A stretch of DNA of 53,268 bases, taken from sequence record OR327751.1. One strand, written 5' to 3'. A program made the position numbers and the translations under genes. Origin of the DNA: Escherichia phage Ecp_YSF. This document shows, in pieces, positions 1,240 through 51,583 of this stretch. Numbering within the stretch: position 1 is the stretch's first letter; each line of letters begins with the position of its first letter. The notes under the pieces were generated by a model. It had not been told where the DNA came from, ran no database searches, and saw only the letters and a program-made list of their open reading frames with translations.

Positions 1240-3003
1240 ATGAACGTCAAGCAATGTGTGGCTAAGATTAAGCACGATGTACCAGACTGTAAATCCACAT
1301 CTGGCAAGTCTTTACAGGTTTGGTTGAATGTCGATGAAGCTGGTAATAAGAACTTCTCTGGTTACTGCTTTGCGTGTGGCGTTCTAGTACCAAATCCTTA
1401 TGGCAATAATCCGGACAACATTCCAGAGATTAAAGTCAAAACTCCAGAAGAAATTCAGGAAGAAGTTGATGAAATCACTGCTTGTCCTCCGTTTGATTTA
1501 ACCCATCGCAGCATCGAGCCAGACTTCTGGAAAGCTGCTGGTGTTCGACTTCTGTATTCAGAGTATGATGGGAAGACTCCAAATGCTCTGGCACATGGCT
1601 ACACCAAAAATGGTAAACTTGTTCGTTGGAAGATTAAACTTCTGAACAAGAAAGTTATGTGGTCAGTTGGCGACACCCAGGGTAACGACCCTTACAACTG
1701 GATGGCTGCAAAAGCAATTGGCGGTAAGACACTGTTCATCACAGAAGGTGAAGAAGACTGCATCGCATTGCGTCAAATCCTCAAAACTATGAACCGTGGT
1801 GGTGCATACGAAGATTTGGATTTTGCTGTAATTAGTTTGAGTGACGGAAGTGACTCCGTACACAAATGTTTGTCACCAGTTGCAGAAGAAATTAAGCAAC
1901 GTTGGGAGCAGGTTGTTATTGTATTCGATGATGATGAACCTGGACGTAAAGCTGCAAAAGAAGCGTGTCGATTGTTGCCTGGTGCAATGATTGCAACACT
2001 TCCAGCTAACGATGCCAACGATTGTTTGAAGCGTGGCTTGCTCAAAGCTACTCAATCTGCTGTTGTGTTCCGTGCTGCTCGTCCTCTGCCTACAGCACTT
2101 GTCAACAAAGAACTTCTTATGGAAGAGCTTGATGATGAGGTTGAACAGGGTGTGGATTATCCTTGGCCCAAGTTAACCGACTTAATGTTTGGTCAACGTC
2201 GAGCCGAAGTTATTACAATCGGTGGTGCAGAAGGTGGTGGTAAAACTACCCTGTCCCGTCAGATTGTGCATCACAACATTACCAAGCACGATTGGGGAGT
2301 GTTTACTGCATACATGGAGGAAACTCCTACAGAAACACTGCGCCGAATGGCTGGCCTTAATGACAACTTGCCATATTGGGAACCTGCGTTTACTCGTGAA
2401 GACCCTCGATATGATGAAGCTAAGTTCCGTCAAACTGCTGCGAAGATGCTTCGTAACATGGAGATTTGGGACCGCAAGCAAGCTGGAGAAGACCCTTATG
2501 AAACCTGGGATGGGTTAAAGACGATTCTTCGTCAGATTGGACCAGACATTGATATGTTTGTCCTTGATAACTTAACCTACTTATCGGAAGGGATTTCTGC
2601 CTCAGAGAAGAACGACTTCTTAGGTAAGCTGTATGCAGATATTACTAAGCTGGCAGACCAATACCAGTTCCATGTAAATATCTTGTCGCACCTTAACCCT
2701 GTGGCAAAAGGTCAACGACCTCATGAGGATGGTGGACGTATTAAGAAGTCAGACTTTACTGGCTCACGTGCTGCTGCTAAATATTCTCATGGCATGTTCG
2801 GCTTTGAGCGTAATAGCCAGGCAGTTGACCCAAACTGTTCTATCATTCGTTCCATTAAGGCTCGTAAGAGTGGTAAAACAGAAGGCTTCAAGACGTATTA
2901 TGACACCGAATCTGGTCGAATTATTCAACGTTCTTGGGACGACTCGCTGTTCGAAACCAAAGAGATTGTTCAACTTACTAAGAAGAACGGTCCACATCAA
3001 TAA
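1240..3003 (+). CDS. bifunctional DNA primase/helicase (T7 gp4-like)
   Basis: TOPRIM motifs ITEGEEDC and FDDDEPGRKAA. Walker A GGAEGGGKTT and Walker B-like MFVLDNLT in the C-terminal half. Confidence 0.9.
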   Translation: MNVKQCVAKIKHDVPDCKSTSGKSLQVWLNVDEAGNKNFSGYCFACGVLVPNPYGNNPDNIPEIKVKTPEEIQEEVDEITACPPFDLTHRSIEPDFWKAAGVRLLYSEYDGKTPNALAHGYTKNGKLVRWKIKLLNKKVMWSVGDTQGNDPYNWMAAKAIGGKTLFITEGEEDCIALRQILKTMNRGGAYEDLDFAVISLSDGSDSVHKCLSPVAEEIKQRWEQVVIVFDDDEPGRKAAKEACRLLPGAMIATLPANDANDCLKRGLLKATQSAVVFRAARPLPTALVNKELLMEELDDEVEQGVDYPWPKLTDLMFGQRRAEVITIGGAEGGGKTTLSRQIVHHNITKHDWGVFTAYMEETPTETLRRMAGLNDNLPYWEPAFTREDPRYDEAKFRQTAAKMLRNMEIWDRKQAGEDPYETWDGLKTILRQIGPDIDMFVLDNLTYLSEGISASEKNDFLGKLYADITKLADQYQFHVNILSHLNPVAKGQRPHEDGGRIKKSDFTGSRAAAKYSHGMFGFERNSQAVDPNCSIIRSIKARKSGKTEGFKTYYDTESGRIIQRSWDDSLFETKEIVQLTKKNGPHQ

Positions 3004-3010
3004 CAGAGCT

Positions 3011-3042
3011 GCTACGCTGCATGGTTCGCCCACCAGCGTAGC
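3011..3042 (+). promoter_or_regulatory. 9-bp perfect hairpin between the primase-helicase and polymerase genes (possible processing or attenuation site)
   Basis: GCTACGCTG (3011-3019) pairs with CAGCGTAGC (3034-3042) around a 14-nt loop. No U-tract follows. Confidence 0.3.
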
Positions 3043-3068
3043 CCTCACCAATCCATTGGAGCCATACT

Positions 3069-5003
3069 GTGTTGTATCCTTGGGAAAATATGTATGCCAG
3101 TGACATTGAAACAACTGGTCTGTTGGAGCAAATGCGTAAGCAAGCTGCACCACGTCTTCACAACATCGGGTATATCGATGTTCTGACTCGTGAAGAAACT
3201 GTAATAGAGTGGACCGACAGAAAGTCTATCCAGGCATTTCTGGATACAGGCCCAACATTAATCATGCACAACGGCGCAACCTTCGACTTTGAAGCACTGA
3301 GGTTCCTTGGTTACGACGTTTCAAAATGTACACTAATTGATACTTTGTTTATCAGTTGGTATCTGCAACCTCGTCGTGTTAAGCACGGCTTAGAAGGTTA
3401 CGGCGAAGAGTTTGGTGTGCCAAAACCAGTCATTGAAGATTGGGAAAATCAAACTCAAGAAGAGTACAACCATCGTGTGATGGAAGACTGCAAGATTCAG
3501 TTGAAGCTGTGGGAACAGCAATACATTCAACTCTTAAAGATTTATAAATCTCCTGGCGAAGTTAAACGCTTCGTTGAATATCTGATGACAAAAGCTCGTC
3601 AACAGGTTATTCAGCAACGAACTCGCTGGAAGTTAAACATTGAGAAGGCACTGGCATTTAAGGCCAAGCTGGAACCAATGATTAAAGAGAAGACGGACGC
3701 ATTGGAAGCATCAATGCCGCGTGTTCCGGAATATGTTATCAAAACCCGTCCAGCTAAATGCCACAAGATGAACGGGCAACTGTCTGCCACTGGAATTAAG
3801 TGGAAGGCTATTTGTGATGCAAACGGTTTGGACTGGAAAGACCCAGACCTGGCTATAAAAGTTCTTAAAGGCTATAAGAAGCCTAATGCTGGTTCACATG
3901 TTCAAATTAAAGACTGGTTGTTCAGCCTAGGTTGGGAACCAGAAACCTTTAAGTTTGACCGTAATAAGGAAACAGGTGAAACTCGCCAGATTCCACAAAT
4001 CACTGTGAAGGATGAAGATGGCAATCCTGAAATATGTCCGAGCTTGCATAAGCTGGCGGAAAGAAACCCCGACTCTGGTATTCAACATCTTATTGGGATG
4101 GGCGTGTATAAACACCGTCTGTCTGTTGTTAATGGCTTCCTTCGCGACGTCGATGAAGATGGGTTCCTTACTGCACGATGTGGTGGCCTTACCAATACTT
4201 TACGCCTTAAACATCGCGAACTTGTTAACCTCCCTTCTATTCGTGTATTTGGCGGTGAAGAACTGCGTTCAATGTTGGAAGCGTGGCGCGAAGATTACGA
4301 ACAGTTAGGCTCTGACTTGTGCTCACTGGAAGACCGTTGTAAGCACCACTTCCAGTGGATGTATGACCCTGAATACGTTAAGAAGCAGTTGGCACCAGAC
4401 TATGATGCTCACCTTGCAATTGGCGTAATTGGCGGATTTATTACCGAACAGGAATCTCAGGACCACAAGGACGGGATTAAGAAGTGTAAACAACGTCCAA
4501 TGTTTAAGACTACAAACTATGCTTGTCAGTATGGTGCTGGTGTACCAACTGTAGCTCGTTCTGCTGGCTGTGACCAGACTACTGCTGCACGACTGCATAA
4601 AGCATATTGGGACTTGAACTGGTCTATTAAAGAGATTGCTGCCAACACCAAAGTTGTAACAATTGATGGTCAGATGTGGCAACAGAATCCAGTAAACAAA
4701 TTCTGGTATTCGTTGCGTACAGAGAAAGACCGCTTCTCCACATTGTGTCAGGGCACTGGTGCATATGTGTTTGATGTTTGGTGTAACAACATCATTGCAA
4801 TTTGTAATGAACGTTGGGGCTGTGACCCGCTTCTGTCTGGACAATTCCATGATGAATTGATTCTCCAAGTTAAGAAAGGTTTCCGTGATTTGTGGACGGA
4901 CTTGCTTAATGAAGCAATGGACCGGACCAACAAAGAACTTAAACTCAATCGTGATTGTGCATGTGATGTACAATTTGGCGATAACTACGCAGAGATTCAC
5001 TAA
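3069..5003 (+). CDS. family A DNA polymerase with 3'-5' exonuclease (T7 gp5-like)
   Basis: Exo I motif DIETTGL. Polymerase motifs DLCSLEDR (A), KTTNYACQYGAG (B) and QFHDELILQV (C). GTG 3069 has GGAG at 3057-3060. Confidence 0.9.
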   Translation: MLYPWENMYASDIETTGLLEQMRKQAAPRLHNIGYIDVLTREETVIEWTDRKSIQAFLDTGPTLIMHNGATFDFEALRFLGYDVSKCTLIDTLFISWYLQPRRVKHGLEGYGEEFGVPKPVIEDWENQTQEEYNHRVMEDCKIQLKLWEQQYIQLLKIYKSPGEVKRFVEYLMTKARQQVIQQRTRWKLNIEKALAFKAKLEPMIKEKTDALEASMPRVPEYVIKTRPAKCHKMNGQLSATGIKWKAICDANGLDWKDPDLAIKVLKGYKKPNAGSHVQIKDWLFSLGWEPETFKFDRNKETGETRQIPQITVKDEDGNPEICPSLHKLAERNPDSGIQHLIGMGVYKHRLSVVNGFLRDVDEDGFLTARCGGLTNTLRLKHRELVNLPSIRVFGGEELRSMLEAWREDYEQLGSDLCSLEDRCKHHFQWMYDPEYVKKQLAPDYDAHLAIGVIGGFITEQESQDHKDGIKKCKQRPMFKTTNYACQYGAGVPTVARSAGCDQTTAARLHKAYWDLNWSIKEIAANTKVVTIDGQMWQQNPVNKFWYSLRTEKDRFSTLCQGTGAYVFDVWCNNIIAICNERWGCDPLLSGQFHDELILQVKKGFRDLWTDLLNEAMDRTNKELKLNRDCACDVQFGDNYAEIH

Positions 5004-12489: not shown

Positions 12490-13805
12490 TGACTTCCAAG
12501 AAGAAAAACAATCTTTCTGTTAAAGTTGCAGATGGGTTAGAAAACCTCGTAACAGGGTTGGGCGGTCAGGCAGATAAGTCCACTTTTAACCAGTGGACTT
12601 TCTCAAACAAGAACGCGAACTATCGCGAACTTATGAACCGCTTCCGTGAGGACTGGGTTGCACAGAAAGTGTGTACCGTCATTCCTCAGGACATGACGCG
12701 TAAGTGGCGACATATTGATACCGAAGAAGGACGCAAAGCGGATAAGAAACTTCGTATCCGTAAGCTGTTCCGTGAAGCATATCAATGGGCCAGATTGTAT
12801 GGTACTTCATTTGTTCTGCTCGACCTGAAAGGTACGGGCAAACTTGATACACCATTGCGACTGGATAACTTGAAGACTGGATGTATTAAATCCATGAGAG
12901 TTATTGACCGCTCGCGCTTATTTGCCGCAGGGACTATGGTTCTGGACCCTATGAGTCCTCACTATGGTTTGCCAGAGTATTACACTTTGGCTGGATATCC
13001 CGGCTATATCCACTACACTCGTTTTCTTCGGTTCGAGGGTACTGAACTGCCGCTGTTCGAATTCCAACGTAACATGTGGTATTCCGATTCGGTACTTATT
13101 CCACTGCTGAAAACGATTGACCAATTCTACACAACTGCCGCTGCTGCTGCCAGCCTTGCCCAAGAAGCCACCATTGATGTGGTAACTGTTGAAGGCTTAC
13201 AATCTCTGCTTACATCACCGGAAGGTGAAGCTGCTGTGATGAAGCGCTTCAAACTTATGAAGCTGGCAAAGAGTATTTATAACGTCTTAATTCTCGACAA
13301 CACTGAGAAGTATGACACCAAGTCAATTGCACTATCTGGTGTGAAAGATTTGATTTGGGAATACTTAAAGATAGTTGCTGCCGCAGTTGGTATTCCGGCT
13401 ACACGTTTCCTTTCTGCATCTCCAGACGGTATGAACGCTACGGGCGAATCTGACCTCGTAAACTATATCGACTTGTTGACAGGCTTGCAGACTTCTGTGT
13501 TCGACCCTCGTTTAGATGTGGTAGACAAGATTGTCCAGGCGCACTTTGGCATCGAAGAATATGACTACGAATGGTTAGATATCTTCCCTGAATCCAATGT
13601 TGAGAAAGCGAAGCGAGCTAAAGATTTGGCATTCGCTGTTGACCTGCTGGTTAACAATGGCACTATAACTACCGAAGTTGCAAACGAAGTCATGTTCCAT
13701 TCGGGCGTGTTCGGAACTTGTGACCTTGGCAAGCCAAATCCTAATCCTCCTAACATCCAAAAGGGTAACGCAAGTGAAGCAAAACCAAAACCTGGTTCAG
13801 CTTAA
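12489..13805 (+). CDS. portal protein
   Basis: 438 aa directly after the large terminase. The pattern resembles the DUF1073-type portal family (from memory). Confidence 0.75.
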   Translation: MTSKKKNNLSVKVADGLENLVTGLGGQADKSTFNQWTFSNKNANYRELMNRFREDWVAQKVCTVIPQDMTRKWRHIDTEEGRKADKKLRIRKLFREAYQWARLYGTSFVLLDLKGTGKLDTPLRLDNLKTGCIKSMRVIDRSRLFAAGTMVLDPMSPHYGLPEYYTLAGYPGYIHYTRFLRFEGTELPLFEFQRNMWYSDSVLIPLLKTIDQFYTTAAAAASLAQEATIDVVTVEGLQSLLTSPEGEAAVMKRFKLMKLAKSIYNVLILDNTEKYDTKSIALSGVKDLIWEYLKIVAAAVGIPATRFLSASPDGMNATGESDLVNYIDLLTGLQTSVFDPRLDVVDKIVQAHFGIEEYDYEWLDIFPESNVEKAKRAKDLAFAVDLLVNNGTITTEVANEVMFHSGVFGTCDLGKPNPNPPNIQKGNASEAKPKPGSA

Positions 13806-13818
13806 CGACGAAGATACC

Positions 13819-14838
13819 GTGAATGAAGTAGTTTTGTTGAACGACAAGGCTACTTTGACGACCCGTCGTTTACGTGACTCTGGCGAGATGATTGCAGAAT
13901 GCACCATCGCTCGTACTGGCATTATGCTGTACAAGGCGAAAGAACTTGGTGAAATCGCAAAACATCTAGACCCAGAATCTATTTGCCGTGTTCGTACCAA
14001 GCCGGAAGTATTATTTGACGAAGCAACCATCGAAGGCTGTCGTTCAATTCCGGTAACTATCGGCCATCCGAAAAATGATGTTAACATCAAGAACAACAAA
14101 GAACTCCAGAAAGGGTTCATCGAAGGGCGTCCAGTTGCAGACGGTTCTTTCTTGGCTGCATCAATCGTTTTGAATGACGAGCAAGCTATTCGATTAGTTG
14201 ATTCTGGTGTTGACCAAATCTCCTTGGGCCATAATGCCGAACTGGCTGTATCAGAAGATGATGAAGCCGACTTCGATAAAGTTCGCATTATCCCTAACCA
14301 TGCTGCAATTGTTGTTCGTGGTCGTGCTCAGACTACTCGCATTGGTGACTCTGGTGAAGAGATTGCCATTGTTGATAAGGCAACCTTTGACGTTGTTGAA
14401 GCAGAGCGTGATGCAGCGCTTGACAAGATTAGCGTCCTTGAACAGAAACTTGCTGATGCAGAAACTGCACGACTATCCGATGAAGCTATCCAGGCTGAGG
14501 TAGACAAACGTGTAGTTGCTCGTACAGCATTGCTTGTTGATGTGGCCCGTCTTGGCGACGAGTTCTCCAACCTCGATTTCTCCGGCAAGACCGATGCGGA
14601 AATTAAGTTGGCTGTAGTTAATAAATTGCATGACAAGGATTTCAGCGATAAGAGCGAAGACTATATCTCCGCCCGTTTCGATGCAGCTCTTGAAGATTGC
14701 GATTCCATTACTTTGGGAGATGCCCTGAATCAGTCTATGCAATTCTCTGCTAAGAAAGATTCAGAAGCTCGTAAACCTAAAGTTTCTATTTCCGAAGAAG
14801 CTAACAAACGTCGTTTAGAACGCTTCAACTCTTTATAA
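13819..14838 (+). CDS. head scaffolding protein (DUF2213-like)
   Basis: Lies between the portal and capsid genes. Coiled-coil, acidic C-terminal half. Start uncertain: GTG 13819, ATG 13888, or the ORF-track start 13678 that overlaps the portal gene. Confidence 0.5.
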   Translation: MNEVVLLNDKATLTTRRLRDSGEMIAECTIARTGIMLYKAKELGEIAKHLDPESICRVRTKPEVLFDEATIEGCRSIPVTIGHPKNDVNIKNNKELQKGFIEGRPVADGSFLAASIVLNDEQAIRLVDSGVDQISLGHNAELAVSEDDEADFDKVRIIPNHAAIVVRGRAQTTRIGDSGEEIAIVDKATFDVVEAERDAALDKISVLEQKLADAETARLSDEAIQAEVDKRVVARTALLVDVARLGDEFSNLDFSGKTDAEIKLAVVNKLHDKDFSDKSEDYISARFDAALEDCDSITLGDALNQSMQFSAKKDSEARKPKVSISEEANKRRLERFNSL

Positions 14839-14847
14839 GGTAAGACA

Positions 14848-15321
14848 ATGCCAAAGCAAGATTGGTCTATTAATACTGGTGAAGCATATGCAGGTGAACA
14901 ATATGGCCTGGCTACCACCAACTCCCAGCGCCTGACCTACGTTGCCGAAGAAGAAATGGCAAACTTTGGTCTGGCTGTTGTTCAAGGTACAGCTTCTAAT
15001 CAGGTTAAACCTGGTATTGGTTCTGATGGCACTGTTCTGGGCATTACCATGCGCCAGATTAATATCGAATCCGCTACTCGTCCTGGTGACGGTACTGTTG
15101 CAATCAAAGTTGGCTGGCCTCTGGGTGTTATGCTGTCTGGCCCAATCATGGTCAAACTGAAAACTGCAATCACCGACAAGAACATTGGCGTATCCACTAA
15201 AGGCGAATTTGGCGGTGTTGGTGCTGGGTATACTAAAGCAACCAACCTGACTGCCCTGCGTTATCCGGCTTCCGCTGGCGATGTTGTCCCGGTCATGATT
15301 AACGTAGTCCCAAAGCCGTAA
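14848..15321 (+). CDS. capsid accessory / putative head decoration protein, short isoform (157 aa)
   Basis: RBS AAGG lies upstream. Highly biased codon usage. Positioned between the scaffold and major capsid genes. Confidence 0.6.
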   Translation: MPKQDWSINTGEAYAGEQYGLATTNSQRLTYVAEEEMANFGLAVVQGTASNQVKPGIGSDGTVLGITMRQINIESATRPGDGTVAIKVGWPLGVMLSGPIMVKLKTAITDKNIGVSTKGEFGGVGAGYTKATNLTALRYPASAGDVVPVMINVVPKP

Positions 15322-15614
15322 CGCCACCTCCAGCCCCTACAGTATCTGCTGTAGCTGGAGTTGTAACGGCTGATGCGTCTTCTACTGATGCCACTGTAAC
15401 TGTAGACAAGCTGTTCAAGTTTGGGAACTCTACAGCAACAGATTATAACTTCGCTGTTACACCTCCTGTGACTGGTGTTTCTGTGGCGGCAAACGGCACT
15501 GTGACTGTCTTGAATGAGACGACCACAGAGACTTCTGCTACAATTAAGGCAACAAACAAAACAACCTCTAGCGTAACTGCGACCAAAGAAATTACCATTA
15601 CGCCGAAGGCTTAA
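14848..15614 (+). CDS. same protein, long isoform made by a -1 frameshift at C CCA AAG (15309-15315), adding a 99-aa Ig-like domain (about 255 aa)
   Basis: The -1 frame is open 15303-15611 and has no start codon. Canonical X XXY YYZ heptamer sits 4 nt before the stop. Hairpin at 15328-15360. The extension shows an Ig-like beta-strand pattern. Confidence 0.55.
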
Positions 15615-15669
15615 GTTGCAATGGCGCAATTAATGGTTGCGCCTCATCAAACAAAACGGATTAATTTAC

Positions 15670-16677
15670 ATGCCTAAGATGATTAAACTGGCGGACGGTT
15701 CTGAATTTGAACTGAACGACGCTATCACCCGTATTCAGGATTCTGGCACTGTTGTCCTGAATGACGACGATGCAGTATTCTTTCAACGCCAGCTTGAGTT
15801 CATTGAAGCTCAAACTTACGACACTCTGTATCCAGAACTGGAAGCTCGTGCTGCTTTCGGTGTGGACACCACTGGTGGCGCTGGCGTAAACACTCTGACC
15901 TACCGTTCCTACAACCATGTTGGCAAAGCCCAGGTAATTAACGCCCGTGCAACCGACCTGCCGAAGTCCAGCATTTCTGGTAAAGAATACAGCATCCCTG
16001 TTAAATCAGTTGGTACTGCATTCGACTACGATATTGACGAAGTAGCGTCTGCTGCTGTTACTGGCCTCCCGCTGGAAACTCGTAAAGCGAATGCTGCTAT
16101 TCGTGGTTACGAGCAGTATGTTAACTCTGCTGCATGGTACGGCGATAAAGCTAACGGCTTTGTTGGCTTCTTCGAAAACCCAGACATTACCAAAGCAACT
16201 GTTGCTCAGGGTGCTGGTGGTTCTACCAAGTGGGCCGAGAAGACCCCGACCGAAGTTATTGCCGACCTGACTGCTGCTGTGTCTGCAATGTATGCTTCTA
16301 CTCTGAAAATTATGCGCCCGGATGAAATCTGGATGCCTGTTGAGCATGAGCAGTACATCTTCAACACTGCACGTTCTGAACAGTCTGATAAGACGATTGG
16401 TCAGTTCTTCATTGACAACAACCAGTTCATCAACTCCCGCGATAAAATCAAGGGTCTGAACGCAATCAAAGGTCACGGCGATTCTGGCTCCGATTGCTTC
16501 GTTGTTGTTTGCCGCAATGCAATGGGCAACCGTACTTTCCGTCTGCGTGAGCCTCTGCCACTGACCTGGCAACCGGTACAGCTTCATGGTCTGGTTTATG
16601 AAGTTCCTGGCCGTGGTCGTTTCGCTGGCTTCCAAGCGATGTACCCGGCAGCAATCTCCATCAACTCCGGCATCTGA
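15670..16677 (+). CDS. major capsid protein
   Basis: About 335 aa with very strong codon bias, in the expected position. The ORF-track start TTG 15637 lies inside the hairpin GGCGCAA/TTGCGCC (15623-15643), so ATG 15670 is preferred. Confidence 0.8.
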   Translation: MPKMIKLADGSEFELNDAITRIQDSGTVVLNDDDAVFFQRQLEFIEAQTYDTLYPELEARAAFGVDTTGGAGVNTLTYRSYNHVGKAQVINARATDLPKSSISGKEYSIPVKSVGTAFDYDIDEVASAAVTGLPLETRKANAAIRGYEQYVNSAAWYGDKANGFVGFFENPDITKATVAQGAGGSTKWAEKTPTEVIADLTAAVSAMYASTLKIMRPDEIWMPVEHEQYIFNTARSEQSDKTIGQFFIDNNQFINSRDKIKGLNAIKGHGDSGSDCFVVVCRNAMGNRTFRLREPLPLTWQPVQLHGLVYEVPGRGRFAGFQAMYPAAISINSGI

Positions 16678-47688: not shown

Positions 47689-47920
47689 TTTAAATATCGC
47701 TGAACTTGAGGCTGGATTGATTGTCCACCACCAGCCTCGAAACACTTTCTATCGTATTCTTGGGCCTACAAAGATTAAAACTCATTGCGGAAGTTGGGTA
47801 GATGGGTTTGCTTACCAAGAAGTTAAGAAGTACGGGGACCATACTTTCTTAAGTATTGATTCTTCTACTATCTACACACGACCGAAAGAGTTATTTGACT
47901 CAGATTGGAAAACGCTATAG
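47681..47920 (+). CDS. DUF1653-like small protein
   Basis: Pattern HHQPRNTFYRILGP...YTRPKELF. Confidence 0.5.
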   Translation: MRDLNIAELEAGLIVHHQPRNTFYRILGPTKIKTHCGSWVDGFAYQEVKKYGDHTFLSIDSSTIYTRPKELFDSDWKTL

Positions 47921-47943
47921 TTCCAGGCGGGTTTCTTCGAAGT

Positions 47944-47971
47944 GCCAAGCGGGTTTTGTACTCGCATTGGC
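47944..47971 (+). terminator. hairpin between the early gene and promoter P6
   Basis: GCCAAGCGGG-TTTTGTA-CTCGC(A)TTGGC: 10 bp with one bulge. Confidence 0.35.
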
Positions 47972-47984
47972 CTTCGGCTTTAGT

Positions 47985-48007
47985 CTGAAACATTAGTGGG
48001 ATTTGAT
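47985..48007 (+). promoter_or_regulatory. phage RNA polymerase promoter P6
   Basis: CTGAAACATTAGTGGGATTTGAT. Confidence 0.5.
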
Positions 48008-48124
48008 TCTGACCACTTAGGGAAGAAAGGCATTATACACTTATCGCCAAATGGGTGTCAAGCACTTTCTTCATTTATTTAATTTATTCTTATTATTCTT
48101 TTTGTTTGGAATATTGGAATAATC

Positions 48125-48147
48125 CTGAAACATTAGTTGGAATTGGA
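48125..48147 (+). promoter_or_regulatory. phage RNA polymerase promoter P7
   Basis: CTGAAACATTAGTTGGAATTGGA, which abuts ATG 48148. Confidence 0.55.
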
Positions 48148-48324
48148 ATGATTAAAGTTCTGGAAAAAGATAACGTAACCTTCGCACGTCAGTGTGGAGG
48201 ATGTTTCTCTGTAGTATCTTACGTGTTCTCTGACTTAAAGATGTACACAGGAAAGAATGACCGAGGATACTTCGCATACAGATTCATTACTTGTCCTGTT
48301 TGCAAGAAGAGTATTCGGCATTAG
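48148..48324 (+). CDS. zinc-ribbon protein (58 aa)
   Basis: CGGC...CPVC. The ORF-track start 48055 gives an AT-rich, low-complexity extension. Confidence 0.5.
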   Translation: MIKVLEKDNVTFARQCGGCFSVVSYVFSDLKMYTGKNDRGYFAYRFITCPVCKKSIRH

Positions 48325-48335
48325 TTGGAATTGAA
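48313..48335 (+). promoter_or_regulatory. phage RNA polymerase promoter P8
   Basis: Core ATTAGTTGGAATTGAA matches at 14 of 16 positions. It overlaps the stop codon of the preceding gene. Confidence 0.6.
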
Positions 48336-48348
48336 ACAACATCAGATA

Positions 48349-48420
48349 AGAGCTTTGTAACTAGGTAGTCCGTCTGGTACCAAGACGTGTGAGAACGTTC
48401 GATTCGTTCTACAAAGCTCT
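48349..48420 (+). ncRNA. tRNA-like RNA element TL1 (acceptor/T-arm intact, reduced D arm, non-decoding anticodon-like loop)
   Basis: 11-bp stem 48349-59/48410-20. T arm GAACG-TTCGATT-CGTTC (48393-48409). Arm CGTCT-GGTACCA-AGACG (48371-48387). Lies 14 nt downstream of P8. Confidence 0.45.
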
Positions 48421-48969
48421 TTTCGATGGAATGTTTCCATCATATACATTTATCTTTTAACATAGGCCAAAGGGCCGGAATACTTATTCGCAGAAAAGCT
48501 ATTCACTTGTTATAGGCGATGTATTGGGATGAATTAGAACTAAATAAGCAAGCTGTTAGGGCTGAATAATTAGAGGGTTGTGCCTCATGCTTATGTTAGT
48601 CATTCGAAAATAGGTTTGTGCCACAAGCTGCTGGTGCTCTGAGGAAGTCGGACAAACAGGGCTTAGAGTGGCATAATCCGCACAAAACCGCGCCACCAGC
48701 TATGCCAAAGCAGGTGGATTGGGTGAATGTATTGGGAAGGGTTGCAAAGCCTCTGCGAGCACGGTATCGCGTATAATAAGTGACGTCTGCGCTGCGTGTA
48801 TCGCACCCTAACGGGAGTAACCCTTCGCCAATGCAGTTATCCAGAATTGACACAAACGGTAGGCAGTGGCCCGATTTTCGGCCTTCCTGTGCTACCCTGT
48901 GGCCTGTTTCATGGGCCAAAAGATGAGAAGAGAAGTCACAAACCCCGAATCGAAAATTGGAGAGTTCCT

Positions 48970-49260
48970 ATGATTCGCAAACATTCTATCCGGGTAATTA
49001 AGGCCCGTAATATTCACACAGGAGAGATGGAAGCATTCGCTTTCTTGGGTGGAAAGTTTTATTTATTTGGTTGGGAAGGAAGTGATTTAAAGTTTGAATT
49101 CTTTATGAATATGTACTCGATTAAAGAGTTGTTAAACAATGCGACCTACGGACCATCCTACATGGAATATTGTTTCGGCAAGCCAGTCGAGCATCTTCTG
49201 TCCAAATCTTTCATTTACAGCTGGACAACAAACCAACCAGTTTACGGAGTTCCATTTTGA
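48970..49260 (+). CDS. hypothetical protein (96 aa)
   Basis: ATG 48970 lies 7 nt after GGAG. The ORF-track start 48796 extends into ORF-free structured sequence. Confidence 0.55.
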   Translation: MIRKHSIRVIKARNIHTGEMEAFAFLGGKFYLFGWEGSDLKFEFFMNMYSIKELLNNATYGPSYMEYCFGKPVEHLLSKSFIYSWTTNQPVYGVPF

Positions 49261-49547
49261 ACTTACAAGACAAATCTAAAGAAGAGTTGATTGAGATTAT
49301 CCAGAAAGAGCACGAACTCGCTGGCATCACAATCAACTATGAACTCCGGGCAATGCAAGCTGTTGCTTTGGGTCATGGTCTAATGGCTACACTCATTCAT
49401 GCCAAGAATGTGTTAGGCATTGACAACGAAAAATACCAAATTCTGGAGAAAGCTGCGCAAGAGCGGATTTCGCAGTGCTTGGTGACATTAGTTGATTTGG
49501 GAATCGACGCAGAAACTGCGAACAAACGTATCCTACAAGGCCACTAA
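49257..49547 (+). CDS. hypothetical protein (96 aa)
   Basis: TTG 49257 shows TTGA coupling with the upstream stop, and GGAG (49246-49249) lies 7 nt upstream. Confidence 0.5.
   Translation: MNLQDKSKEELIEIIQKEHELAGITINYELRAMQAVALGHGLMATLIHAKNVLGIDNEKYQILEKAAQERISQCLVTLVDLGIDAETANKRILQGH
49480..49502 (+). promoter_or_regulatory. weak promoter-like site inside coding sequence
   Basis: GTGACATTAGTTGATTTGGGA. The core matches at 11 of 16 positions. Confidence 0.25.
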
Positions 49548-49548
49548 A

Positions 49549-50223
49549 ATGTCTTATCATGATGATGACAAAGAGATTGCACTATCAACGTGTAAGCAAT
49601 GGCTCAATGATAATGATGCCGTCTATCTTGCCAAGGAAGATGTTATCATTATGTGGGTCCATTTTAATCCAGAATCGAAGCGCGGTGAGTGGCAACGCTA
49701 CAAGATGAAAGAGGCTTGTCGCATAATTAAAGCCACACGCGCTGGCTTCTCTGCTATGAAATACATCAAGCCAGAGATGCTGATGCTTGCTGCACAGGAA
49801 GAAGAACGTGCATATAAGCAAGCTGTTAAATCTCGTTCAACTGTTCCTCCAGAGTTCTTTAATTTGGAGCGCGCTGGACACTTCAACAATTTAGAAATGT
49901 TGACACTGTGCCTGTTGCAAGAATTAGTTGGAAGAGGACAAAACATTGAAGCTGTTTGTCTTGGAGAACTTATGAAAGAGTTGTTCTCGGCAAAGGGCTT
50001 TGCTGTGCCAAATCGAACTTTACGCTGGAAATTGTTGCGAGCAGTCGCTCAAGAAGCTGGTGTAGTTGTTCGTGACAGAACAAACCGACTCACTGTAACT
50101 GGAGTTGGGCGTTTTGTAGCAATCCAGATTGAGGGTTATGACGAATCAATCATCACTGAACTCACTGTCGATGAGACAAAGGATTTAGTAAATAAAACAC
50201 TAGAACGATTCAATAGATACTGA
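49549..50223 (+). CDS. hypothetical protein (224 aa)
   Basis: First ATG after the upstream stop codon. Confidence 0.55.
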   Translation: MSYHDDDKEIALSTCKQWLNDNDAVYLAKEDVIIMWVHFNPESKRGEWQRYKMKEACRIIKATRAGFSAMKYIKPEMLMLAAQEEERAYKQAVKSRSTVPPEFFNLERAGHFNNLEMLTLCLLQELVGRGQNIEAVCLGELMKELFSAKGFAVPNRTLRWKLLRAVAQEAGVVVRDRTNRLTVTGVGRFVAIQIEGYDESIITELTVDETKDLVNKTLERFNRY

Positions 50224-50685: not shown

Positions 50686-51583
50686 GTTGCCGATGGCAAA
50701 CTTGAGAGACTAAGCTAAATCGATCTGGCATGCACTGGGAGATCTGCCAGTGCTGCCTTGAATCCCATTCCAGAGTGAGTGGGCTTCAATGAGCATTCTT
50801 GTGATTAGAGTTGGGAGGTAGGCCGATGCCCAAGCTCGTGGCCCAGACAAGAGTGTTCATTGAAGTAGTTTTCTGAGTCTTACGACGGGCCTAAACTGCC
50901 TGGAGTTATTGCGACTGTTTTATTCATTTAAAATAAATGCAAATGATTCTGAAATGCGAGTTGCGGCTTAATTAAATTTAAGTCCTCTCCGTGGTCTTCC
51001 AATCCCACGTAACCAAATTTGGCGCATTGTGGCTTCGAGATGTGATTAATAAATCGGAGCAATAATTAATTTGTATTCTGCGATGCAAAGCAGGCTTAAG
51101 TCCTCCAGTGCGCGTGGGGATGTGACAGAGTACAAACTTAATTATGCAGTTGGATATTTCTAGAGGACGGACGAGCACACTGGAATGTCTTCAATTGGTT
51201 TAGTGTGAGAAGCTATGCCAATTTGAAACGTAACTCCTTGGGGAAGTGCTCCTCTGGATTTCCCTCCACACAGGAATCTCAAGCCTGTGGCAGCGACTTC
51301 GAAGCTGCACTGCGTAACCTAATTCACCCTAAAGTGAGTTGCCCTGAGCATGGAAATAAACTGCTCTAACCGATGGTATCTACAAAGGTAGATTAAATCA
51401 GGTTGCCTGTTGGTACTTGGGTTCAACACCTGCTTGCACTCGCAAAGTAGTGCCTCGTACCTGAGATGAAGTGAGTCGGGACCATCAATCCCACGTTATG
51501 TCAAAACACAGTAGGCGACTCACAGATTCTACAAGCCTCGCAGTTCGGGAAAACCTGCGTTATCAAAACCCCCCCCTCAATTT

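Follow-up and report, generated by a model that had tools for sequence, protein, structure and literature searches.

Comparative analysis has shown that positions 48416-48969 of Escherichia phage Ecp_YSF (record OR327751.1) specify what is predicted to be a non-coding RNA of the transcribed (+) strand, composed of separately conserved folded modules that recur across genera of the Chaseviridae. The whole 53,268-nt record is called the window here, and all coordinates refer to this stretch. The source phage is a Carltongylesvirus (Chaseviridae, Cleopatravirinae) of the phiEcoM-GJ1 type. Chaseviridae are myoviruses with a T7-like single-subunit RNA polymerase, for which family promoters have not yet been established (ICTV profile). 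A BLAST search of phage records with 48300-49000 returned 50 records, 42 of them with at least 80% query coverage at 80-94% identity, and nearly all were Escherichia, Yersinia and Shigella phages of the Chaseviridae (Cleopatravirinae, Carltongylesvirus). One record, PP952070.1, is named "Staphylococcus phage Pel53" (host Staphylococcus hyicus) and is 84-86% identical to these coliphages across the region; its host label looks doubtful. The gene order was the same in all relatives examined: an anti-restriction gene and one or two small genes precede the RNA locus, all on one strand.

Close relatives were aligned in sets of 13 and later 15 sequences, and ORF integrity was compared in 12 of them. 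The more distant Chaseviridae compared were Sabourvirus 4HA13 (locus L003), Aeromonas phiA050 (L004), Erwinia Y2 (L005), Nougat, Aioli (L107), Faunus (L109) and Proteus Myduc; further labelled loci are Mangalitsa (L001), phiEcoM-GJ1 (L002 and L112), Erwinia phage Calisson (L111) and the metagenomic relative L094. IMG/VR and metagenome contigs were gathered by means of a conserved 16-21-mer of the motif A core (see below). The downstream protein was also considered as a route to relatives, but its alignment was too divergent for locus finding.

The first-pass annotation had described 48442-48969 as ORF-free, G+C-richer and helix-dense. Nine mechanically called ORFs of 30-107 aa overlap this stretch, and the ORF-free claim was borne out by frameshifts or in-frame stops in eight of these nine (all of at least 30 aa) across the 12 close relatives. 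The ninth, a 46-aa ORF on the minus strand (48556-48696), is frameshifted by an 11-nt insertion in two relatives and is otherwise intact only because the stretch is so strongly conserved (94-97% identity). GenBank records either leave the region blank or annotate small hypothetical proteins in it that are mutually inconsistent between records, for example at 2193-2678 in Erwinia phage Y2, at 3536-3631 in Mangalitsa and as ORF028/029 in PYps3T. The start of Y2 gp30 seems to be placed about 180 nt too far upstream, across domains D-E; the conserved Y2 protein starts at 2373, after the GTCACA and RBS junction described below.

The elevated G+C content was found for 48600-48930 (0.523, against 0.44 for the whole window), a value attained in just 1.3% of 331-nt windows, but not for the 5' third (48442-48599), which is A+T-rich (0.367). 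The helix density was confirmed. The + strand of 48535-48945 folds at -148 kcal/mol (z = -3.8), and none of 100 shuffled sequences folded as well, against z = -1.3 for the reverse complement. The proposal of a structured non-coding + strand RNA between the promoter and tRNA-like element and the next gene was upheld. In the close group 89 pairs were predicted, of which 98.9% are paired and nine show changes on both sides. G.U pairs make up about 140 of the 1333 paired cells of this group; the complementary strand would have A.C mismatches in their place, which points to the + strand as the one that folds. The alignment of the close group consists of near-invariant blocks alternating with short segments that occur in several unrelated versions: identity to the window is 94-97% at 48550-48700 and 58% at 48750-48800, compared to 75-93% in the upstream protein genes. 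The alternative that the sequence is unconserved filler is contradicted by the former value. Covariation analysis, suggested in the first-pass annotation as a check, revealed compensatory changes across genera in motif A (9 of 11 pairs changed on both sides), hairpin B (24 of 26) and domains D and E (38 of 59).

Motif A and hairpin B

In motif A (48542-48596, + strand) the closing helix P1 of 7 bp (48544-50 with 48588-94) and the hairpin P2 of at least 4 bp (48573-76 with 48583-86) frame an internal loop of 22 nt at 48551-72, AGCUGUUAGGGCUGAAUAAUUA, which is unpaired and near-invariant. Each of 30 loci contains a single match to a covariance model of this motif (R1), with scores of 40-77 bits, and the whole window has just one. 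When relatives from other genera were included, 89.5% of the cells were paired, compared to 32-50% with slid partners, and none of 500 shuffles attained the observed values. In P1, AAGCA/UGCUU of the window is AAUGA/UCAUU in Myduc and L036, AACCA/UGGUU in L022, AACGA/UCGUU in L094 and UACCA/UGGUA in Aioli. The 16-21-mer of the core is present in phages of Erwinia, Proteus, Pantoea and Aeromonas and in metagenomes, and the 22 unpaired bases are kept across genera whose neighbouring proteins share just 17-55% identity. A search of 5,426 E. coli genomes with motif A gave no match.

Genera differ in what lies 3' of motif A: the window has hairpin B, Myduc an RBS at a distance of about 25 nt, and Loessnervirus a terminator-like hairpin and a promoter-like site. 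Two covarying helices around a long invariant unpaired segment give motif A the look of a binding pocket, as in HK022 put and riboswitch aptamers. However, it matches no known aptamer class in Rfam, and an expression platform common to the genera was not found directly 3' of it. To our knowledge, elements of the put or aptamer type have no known action on a T7-like polymerase. The 7-bp closing helix is also reminiscent of a tRNA, but motif A has no T-loop.

Several short repeats were noted. A 15-nt exact copy of the 5' part of motif A (ATAAGCAAGCTGTTA) lies at 49814-49828 within gene 49492-50223 (E = 0.002 in the window) and may be due to chance. An 11-nt direct repeat, ATGTATTGGGA, is found at 48519-48529 and 48727-48737. 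The second copy is part of the 5' strand of the domain D helix, where it pairs with CCAAUGCA at 48826-33, and the first copy could be an alternative pairing partner. In other genera a related word, AUGUAGGG, precedes motif A.

Hairpin B (48613-48679, + strand) is an extended hairpin of three segments and 26 pairs, closed by a G(G/A)AAG pentaloop at 48643-47. The fold is based on RNAalifold and on pair counts in the 15 close relatives. Variation within this group is limited to T-to-C changes at 48629 (8 of 15 sequences) and 48640 (9 of 15), both of which turn a U.G pair into C-G. Covariance models were used for the comparison between genera, since MAFFT alone misaligned hairpin B. Model R3, built from the near-identical close relatives only, located the hairpin at the expected sites in phiA050 (42 bits), L059 (33), Faunus (26), 4HA13 (14) and phiEcoM-GJ1 (13). 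In the R3 alignment, of which two of the seven rows are probably spurious weak hits, 91.9% of the cells were paired, compared to 35-41% when slid; alignments fitted by a covariance model are biased towards the structure of the model. Hairpin B is missing in Y2, Myduc and L022. The resemblance of GAGGAAGUC in its loop to the conserved GGAAAGUCC of RNase P RNA was considered, and such a relation was rejected in view of the covarying local stem that closes the loop and the lack of an Rfam RNase P match.

The same two substitutions decide against the fold in the first-pass annotation, which placed a three-way junction at 48626-48711. One of its pairing strands, AGCTGCTGGTG, is indeed located at 48626-36, but its partner CACCAGCT is at 48694-701 and not at 48704-11. 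The T-to-C changes at 48629 and 48640 would give C.A mismatches in the AGCT/AGCT and CTCTGAG/CTTAGAG helices of that fold, and the partner bases never vary, while the same changes fit hairpin B. The earlier fold was therefore rejected; the actual three-way junction is domain D (48719-48844). Hairpin B and domain D are connected by segment C (48680-48718, + strand), a linker with a short hairpin at 48696-48714 for which the evidence is weak: its four predicted pairs are invariant in the close group, and a hairpin of the GCGCC-AGCCAA-GCGC type was seen by eye as its counterpart in other genera.

Domains D and E and the endonuclease cassette

The three-way junction of domain D (+ strand) is closed by an irregular outer helix of 26 pairs (48719-48746 with 48817-48844), which encloses a small CCC-UAAC-GGG hairpin (48806-15) and a hypervariable arm (48754-48805). 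In distant relatives 25 of the 26 outer pairs were changed on both sides, and the helix is paired at 100% in the 15 close relatives and at 93% in the distant rows. The arm occurs in at least five unrelated sequence versions among the 15 close relatives, with 58% identity between flanks of 90-97%, and forms a stem-loop in every version. The version of the window (..GCGUAUAAUAAGUGACGUCUGCGC..) recurs in the otherwise distant contig L094, which indicates that arm versions circulate by recombination.

Domain E (48858-48922, + strand) consists of E1 (48858-96) and E2 (48897-922). Two swapped versions of E1 exist, with GGUAG/CUACC and GGUUG/CAACC, respectively, and compensatory AU/UA and GC/UA changes in E1 were found within the close group. 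A model for D and E (R2), also built from close relatives only, matched L094 at 80 bits, 4HA13 at 68, phiA050 at 28, L022 at 20, Aioli at 15 and L059 at 11.5. Built on close relatives alone, the models thus reached homologues in other genera, among them phages of Aeromonas and Erwinia and metagenomic contigs, each in the syntenic position where it was expected. In the distant rows 91.8% of the D and E cells were paired, against 35-41% when slid, and helices 5-7 of domain E were paired at 94-100%. A two-hairpin unit analogous to E was seen by eye 3' of CAAACG in Loessnervirus, Faunus and L059.

Domain E is followed by a fixed junction at 48935-48972 (+ strand), with GUCACA at 48935-40, AAAUUGGAGA containing the RBS GGAG at 48959-62, and the ATG at 48970. 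GTCACAWWS occurs once in the window. The order GTCACA, TTGGAG and start codon is conserved in other genera irrespective of the gene. D-E always abuts the RBS, no matter which gene is first: MIRKHS in the window, MVQKYG in both phiEcoM-GJ1 (L002) and L098, and other genes in Aioli, Faunus and Calisson. A scan of the sequence between the promoter-like repeats and the ATG gave a single terminator-like site within E1/E2 (48891-48903), a weak one whose tail (CTGTTTCATG) is poor in T. A promoter-like site falls exactly on the 5' strand of the D helix in Loessnervirus and Faunus; the mRNA would there begin with D.

Long-range pairings proposed by eye were all rejected. Pairing of GUUAGGG in motif A with CCCUAAC of the D hairpin is broken in TH37 and TH26 with no compensating change, the alternative E1 version breaks the pairing of its loop with sequence 5' of the RBS, and pairing of GGAAG in the hairpin B loop with CUUCC in E1 was inconsistent.

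Two phages carry a gene within the locus. BLAST of the window against phiEcoM-GJ1 aligned 48319-48562 and 48829-48976; the 266 nt in between, 48563-48828, are replaced in phiEcoM-GJ1 by 583 nt including gp24, and BLAST detected no similarity between the two. The phiEcoM-GJ1 locus has a diverged motif A and retains B and E, and C-D is gone. In Calisson a homologous ORF directly follows a similarly diverged motif A and most of D is missing. These ORFs of 133-134 aa (1766-2167 in L002 and 773-1177 in L111), annotated "putative exonuclease SbcC", match PHROG 2340 "endonuclease" (E = 9e-10 for gp24 and 1e-11 for the Calisson ORF) and, weakly, an HNH family; Pfam gave nothing for gp24 or for the flanking small proteins. 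Relatives with a protein-coding gene at this site had been named beforehand as evidence against an RNA. Such relatives do exist, but the sequence of the window is not a decayed copy of their gene. Since the cassette replaces D with motif A, B and E staying around it, it is a mobile insertion and not ancestral to the sequence of the window, and the fact that phiEcoM-GJ1 and Calisson live without domain D indicates that this domain is dispensable. Both carriers, which belong to different genera, have the diverged motif A (GGCUUUUGGGGCC...), a pattern that would be expected if the endonuclease homes by cutting the standard motif A. TH37 and TH26 have a diverged motif A without the endonuclease ORF. 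The position of this ORF also led us to consider a group I intron, which would interrupt a gene with exon continuity and contain the conserved P3-P9 core. This was rejected: the upstream ORF is complete at 48324, translation of the downstream gene starts from an RBS and ATG of its own, and there was no Rfam intron hit (RF00028).

Promoter-like repeats and the tRNA-like element

The RNA region is preceded by three tandem copies of a phage-type promoter-like repeat, at 47991, 48131 and 48319 (direct-repeat family D1). The third, CATTAGTTGGAATTGAAA (48319-48336, + strand), is the P8 of the first-pass annotation. The repeat CATTAGTTGGAWKTG has 10 matches in the window, compared to 0.6 expected, and the phiEcoM-GJ1 record labels the identical sequence "putative phage promoter 4/5". 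The upstream ORF ends at 48324, and the promoter-like site and the tRNA-like element TL1 come after it. G+C content is 0.335 at 48000-48199. Within this stretch an A+T-rich segment (48060-48152, G+C about 0.34), just upstream of the second and third promoter-like sites, contains GGAATAAT and ATTGGAATRAT repeats, and denser arrays of the GGAATAAT-type word were read by eye in Faunus, 4HA13 and L059; these repeats may represent an array of operators or belong to an origin. On the minus strand 48032-48061 carries a perfect 12/12 sigma-70 consensus (TTGACA, 18 nt, TATAAT), directed leftward, away from the RNA region. The hexamers are present in other genera too, at a spacing that by eye is much shorter (~8 nt in Y2), so the site in the window may not be a promoter.

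TL1 (48350-48412, + strand) has a long acceptor-like stem and a T-arm GAACG-UUCGAUU-CGUUC with the canonical T-loop UUCGAUU, and occurs in at least four swapped versions among close relatives. ARAGORN and Rfam (RF00005) reported no tRNA anywhere in the window, TL1 included, but the homologous site in L094 (1668-1745, minus strand) is occupied by a tRNA that scores 49.3 bits in Rfam, above the cut-off of 29. ARAGORN also calls this tRNA, with an odd anticodon loop. TL1 is thus best described as tRNA-derived or tRNA-like, not as a tRNA. It is followed by a near-invariant hairpin, GAUGGAAUGUUUCCAUC (48416-48432, + strand), which is identical or has one change (GATGGARTGTTTCCATCA) in Carltongylesvirus, Sabourvirus 4HA13, Aeromonas phiA050, Faunus and IMG/VR contigs. 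A small GGCC-AAAG-GGCC hairpin (48465-48476, + strand) is predicted from the 13-sequence alignment and from single-sequence folds, and the variable segment 3' of it (~48478-48520) has at least two versions.

Similar gaps are seen elsewhere in these genomes. The phiEcoM-GJ1 reference (L112) has three further ORF-free gaps of 0.5-1.2 kb, at 2848-4046, 13557-14095 and 14961-16028, some directly after annotated phage promoters, and a tRNA-Arg annotated "that may contain an intron". There may be further structured RNAs in these gaps. The counterpart of this gap stretch in the window, ~50700-51500, is likewise G+C-rich.

Possible roles of the RNA

Rfam 15 (4227 models), the scan of which had been recommended at the outset, contains no match: there were no hits in the whole window at the gathering score, a search of 47900-49100 at E up to 10 gave only a chance miRNA hit inside the downstream gene, and eleven relatives searched at E up to 1 yielded nothing beyond the L094 tRNA, which occupies the TL1 site, and a chance hit to a snoRNA. 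The literature searched contains nothing on non-coding RNA, transcript maps, end-mapping or cleavage in Chaseviridae, or on these sequences. We class the region as one or more new RNA families whose general kind is already known. In function it comes closest to the T7 RNase III sites and to the tRNA-adjacent ROOL and GOLLD RNAs; membership in either is not supported.

In our view the RNA is most likely a leader that the phage polymerase transcribes ahead of the downstream operon and that acts mainly in cis, in processing, stability and translation; we put the probability of this reading at about 0.5. It draws on T7, like the Chaseviridae a phage with a single-subunit polymerase of this type and long same-strand polycistronic transcription, in its early and middle mRNA leaders. 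Host RNase III cleaves the long T7 transcripts at irregular helices, about two turns in length, that precede cistrons. The T7-like polymerase would transcribe the RNA from the tandem promoters at 47991, 48131 and 48319, and TL1 and the ~26-bp D helix would be processing sites of the host RNase P and RNase III type, respectively. The processed mRNA would then have a stable, folded 5' end, like T7 early mRNA at its RNase III sites, and E1/E2 with GUCACA and the RBS would act as a fixed translation-initiation cassette for whichever gene is first. Motif A would be the docking site of a conserved partner, either a protein or the polymerase, and the D arm and the body of TL1 would be peripheral and swappable by recombination. 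The same-strand promoter-like repeats just upstream and the single weak, T-poor terminator-like site before the ATG are in agreement with a leader, and the dispensability of D in phiEcoM-GJ1 and Calisson counts against it. The outer helix of D resembles T7 RNase III sites in being an irregular double-stranded helix of more than 20 bp just upstream of a cistron RBS, and its 26 pairs correspond to the ~two turns of dsRNA found between T7 cistrons. However, the T7 sites are single hairpins of ~60 nt, and helix D belongs to a three-way junction with a hypervariable arm in a chain of modules of more than 400 nt. Sequence similarity between the two was not seen, and cleavage of D, and the assignment of D and TL1 as processing or stabilising elements, is proposed by analogy.

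The main rival of the leader model is a stable stand-alone ncRNA, or several, cut from the transcript or separately transcribed and acting in trans, e.g. in host takeover or as an anti-defence decoy. We regard this as possible, at a clearly lower probability than a leader. The region begins with TL1, at a site where L094 has a true tRNA, and the RNA is conserved irrespective of the gene that follows. The persistence of the unpaired bases of motif A next to strongly diverged proteins would also fit a partner in trans. The arrangement in Loessnervirus fits a stand-alone RNA better than a leader: a promoter-like site opens an ORF-free stretch of ~450 nt that ends in motif A, and a terminator-like hairpin and a new promoter-like site come next. 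Motif A there looks like the 3' end of a separate unit. In the window, however, the modules are separated from the RBS by no other terminator-like site than the weak one at 48891-48903. The modules also come and go independently of each other (Y2, Myduc and L022 lack B, and phiEcoM-GJ1 and Calisson have a cassette in place of D), which argues against one integrated RNA machine. A complementary target was not found in the phage, where a search of the whole window for antisense targets of the motif A loop, the D arm, B, C and E gave only chance matches of 8-13 nt, and the E. coli genomes had no match to motif A. ROOL and GOLLD (RF03087, RF01998) are likewise phage-encoded multi-helix RNAs of several hundred nt, typically beside tRNA genes; their hosts are Firmicutes and the hosts here Gammaproteobacteria, there is no Rfam match, and independent gain and loss of modules running into an RBS make a single integrated particle less likely. 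In T4, too, non-coding RNAs (the stable species 1 and 2) share a transcript with tRNA or tRNA-like elements, so that release by host tRNA-processing enzymes is likely. They are only ~120-140 nt, lie within a real tRNA cluster and have no evident relation in sequence or structure to the RNA described here.

Two other explanations carry far less weight. The primary origin of T7 has tandem phage promoters next to an A+T-rich stretch and needs no RNA structure. The same combination is found in the window, with three promoter-like sites beside 48060-48150 and its GGAATAAT-type repeats, similar repeats in Faunus, 4HA13 and L059 by eye, and a location at ~20% of the phiEcoM-GJ1 map, downstream of the polymerase gene, that resembles the T7 layout. 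Transcripts from the tandem promoters might thus prime DNA synthesis, with the folded RNA shaping the primer as in ColE1 RNA II. We consider this improbable. The structure extends right up to the RBS. GC skew says nothing on an origin, because all genes run one way. Least probable of all, and by a wide margin doubtful, is that the region is a decayed protein gene (e.g. a phiEcoM-GJ1-type endonuclease) or decayed tRNA genes, or that it still encodes small proteins. The endonuclease-family ORF of phiEcoM-GJ1 and Calisson and the small hypothetical proteins in several GenBank records point in this direction. Against it, the ORFs are interrupted by frameshifts and stops and the annotated ones vary by record, 48563-48828 is dissimilar to the phiEcoM-GJ1 cassette, phiEcoM-GJ1 retains motif A, B and E around its gene, and the substitutions are compensatory in helices, which decay does not produce.

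More tentatively, and at odds somewhat below those of a stand-alone ncRNA, the region may represent an undescribed class, a large modular stable phage RNA linked to TL1, with motif A as a pocket, the D arm and TL1 as specificity determinants, and an endonuclease homing at motif A. If so, motif A would bind a conserved factor of the host or the phage in a new kind of pocket, and the versions of the D arm and TL1 would be under diversifying selection, e.g. in phage-phage competition or defence evasion. The endonuclease would then cut the standard motif A, from which phiEcoM-GJ1 and Calisson have diverged.

Chaseviridae are common coliphages and phages of Erwinia and Yersinia which are studied for biocontrol, and their transcription programme is essentially unmapped. 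The present analysis adds a set of covariation-supported RNA elements at a fixed genome position. Being 55 nt long, present once per genome and more conserved than the surrounding proteins, motif A is tractable for pull-down and mutation studies, and the swapped arms and the endonuclease replacement form a natural experiment on which parts are dispensable. Should the RNA prove to be stand-alone, it would bring phages of Gammaproteobacteria into the small group of large phage RNAs whose function is unknown.
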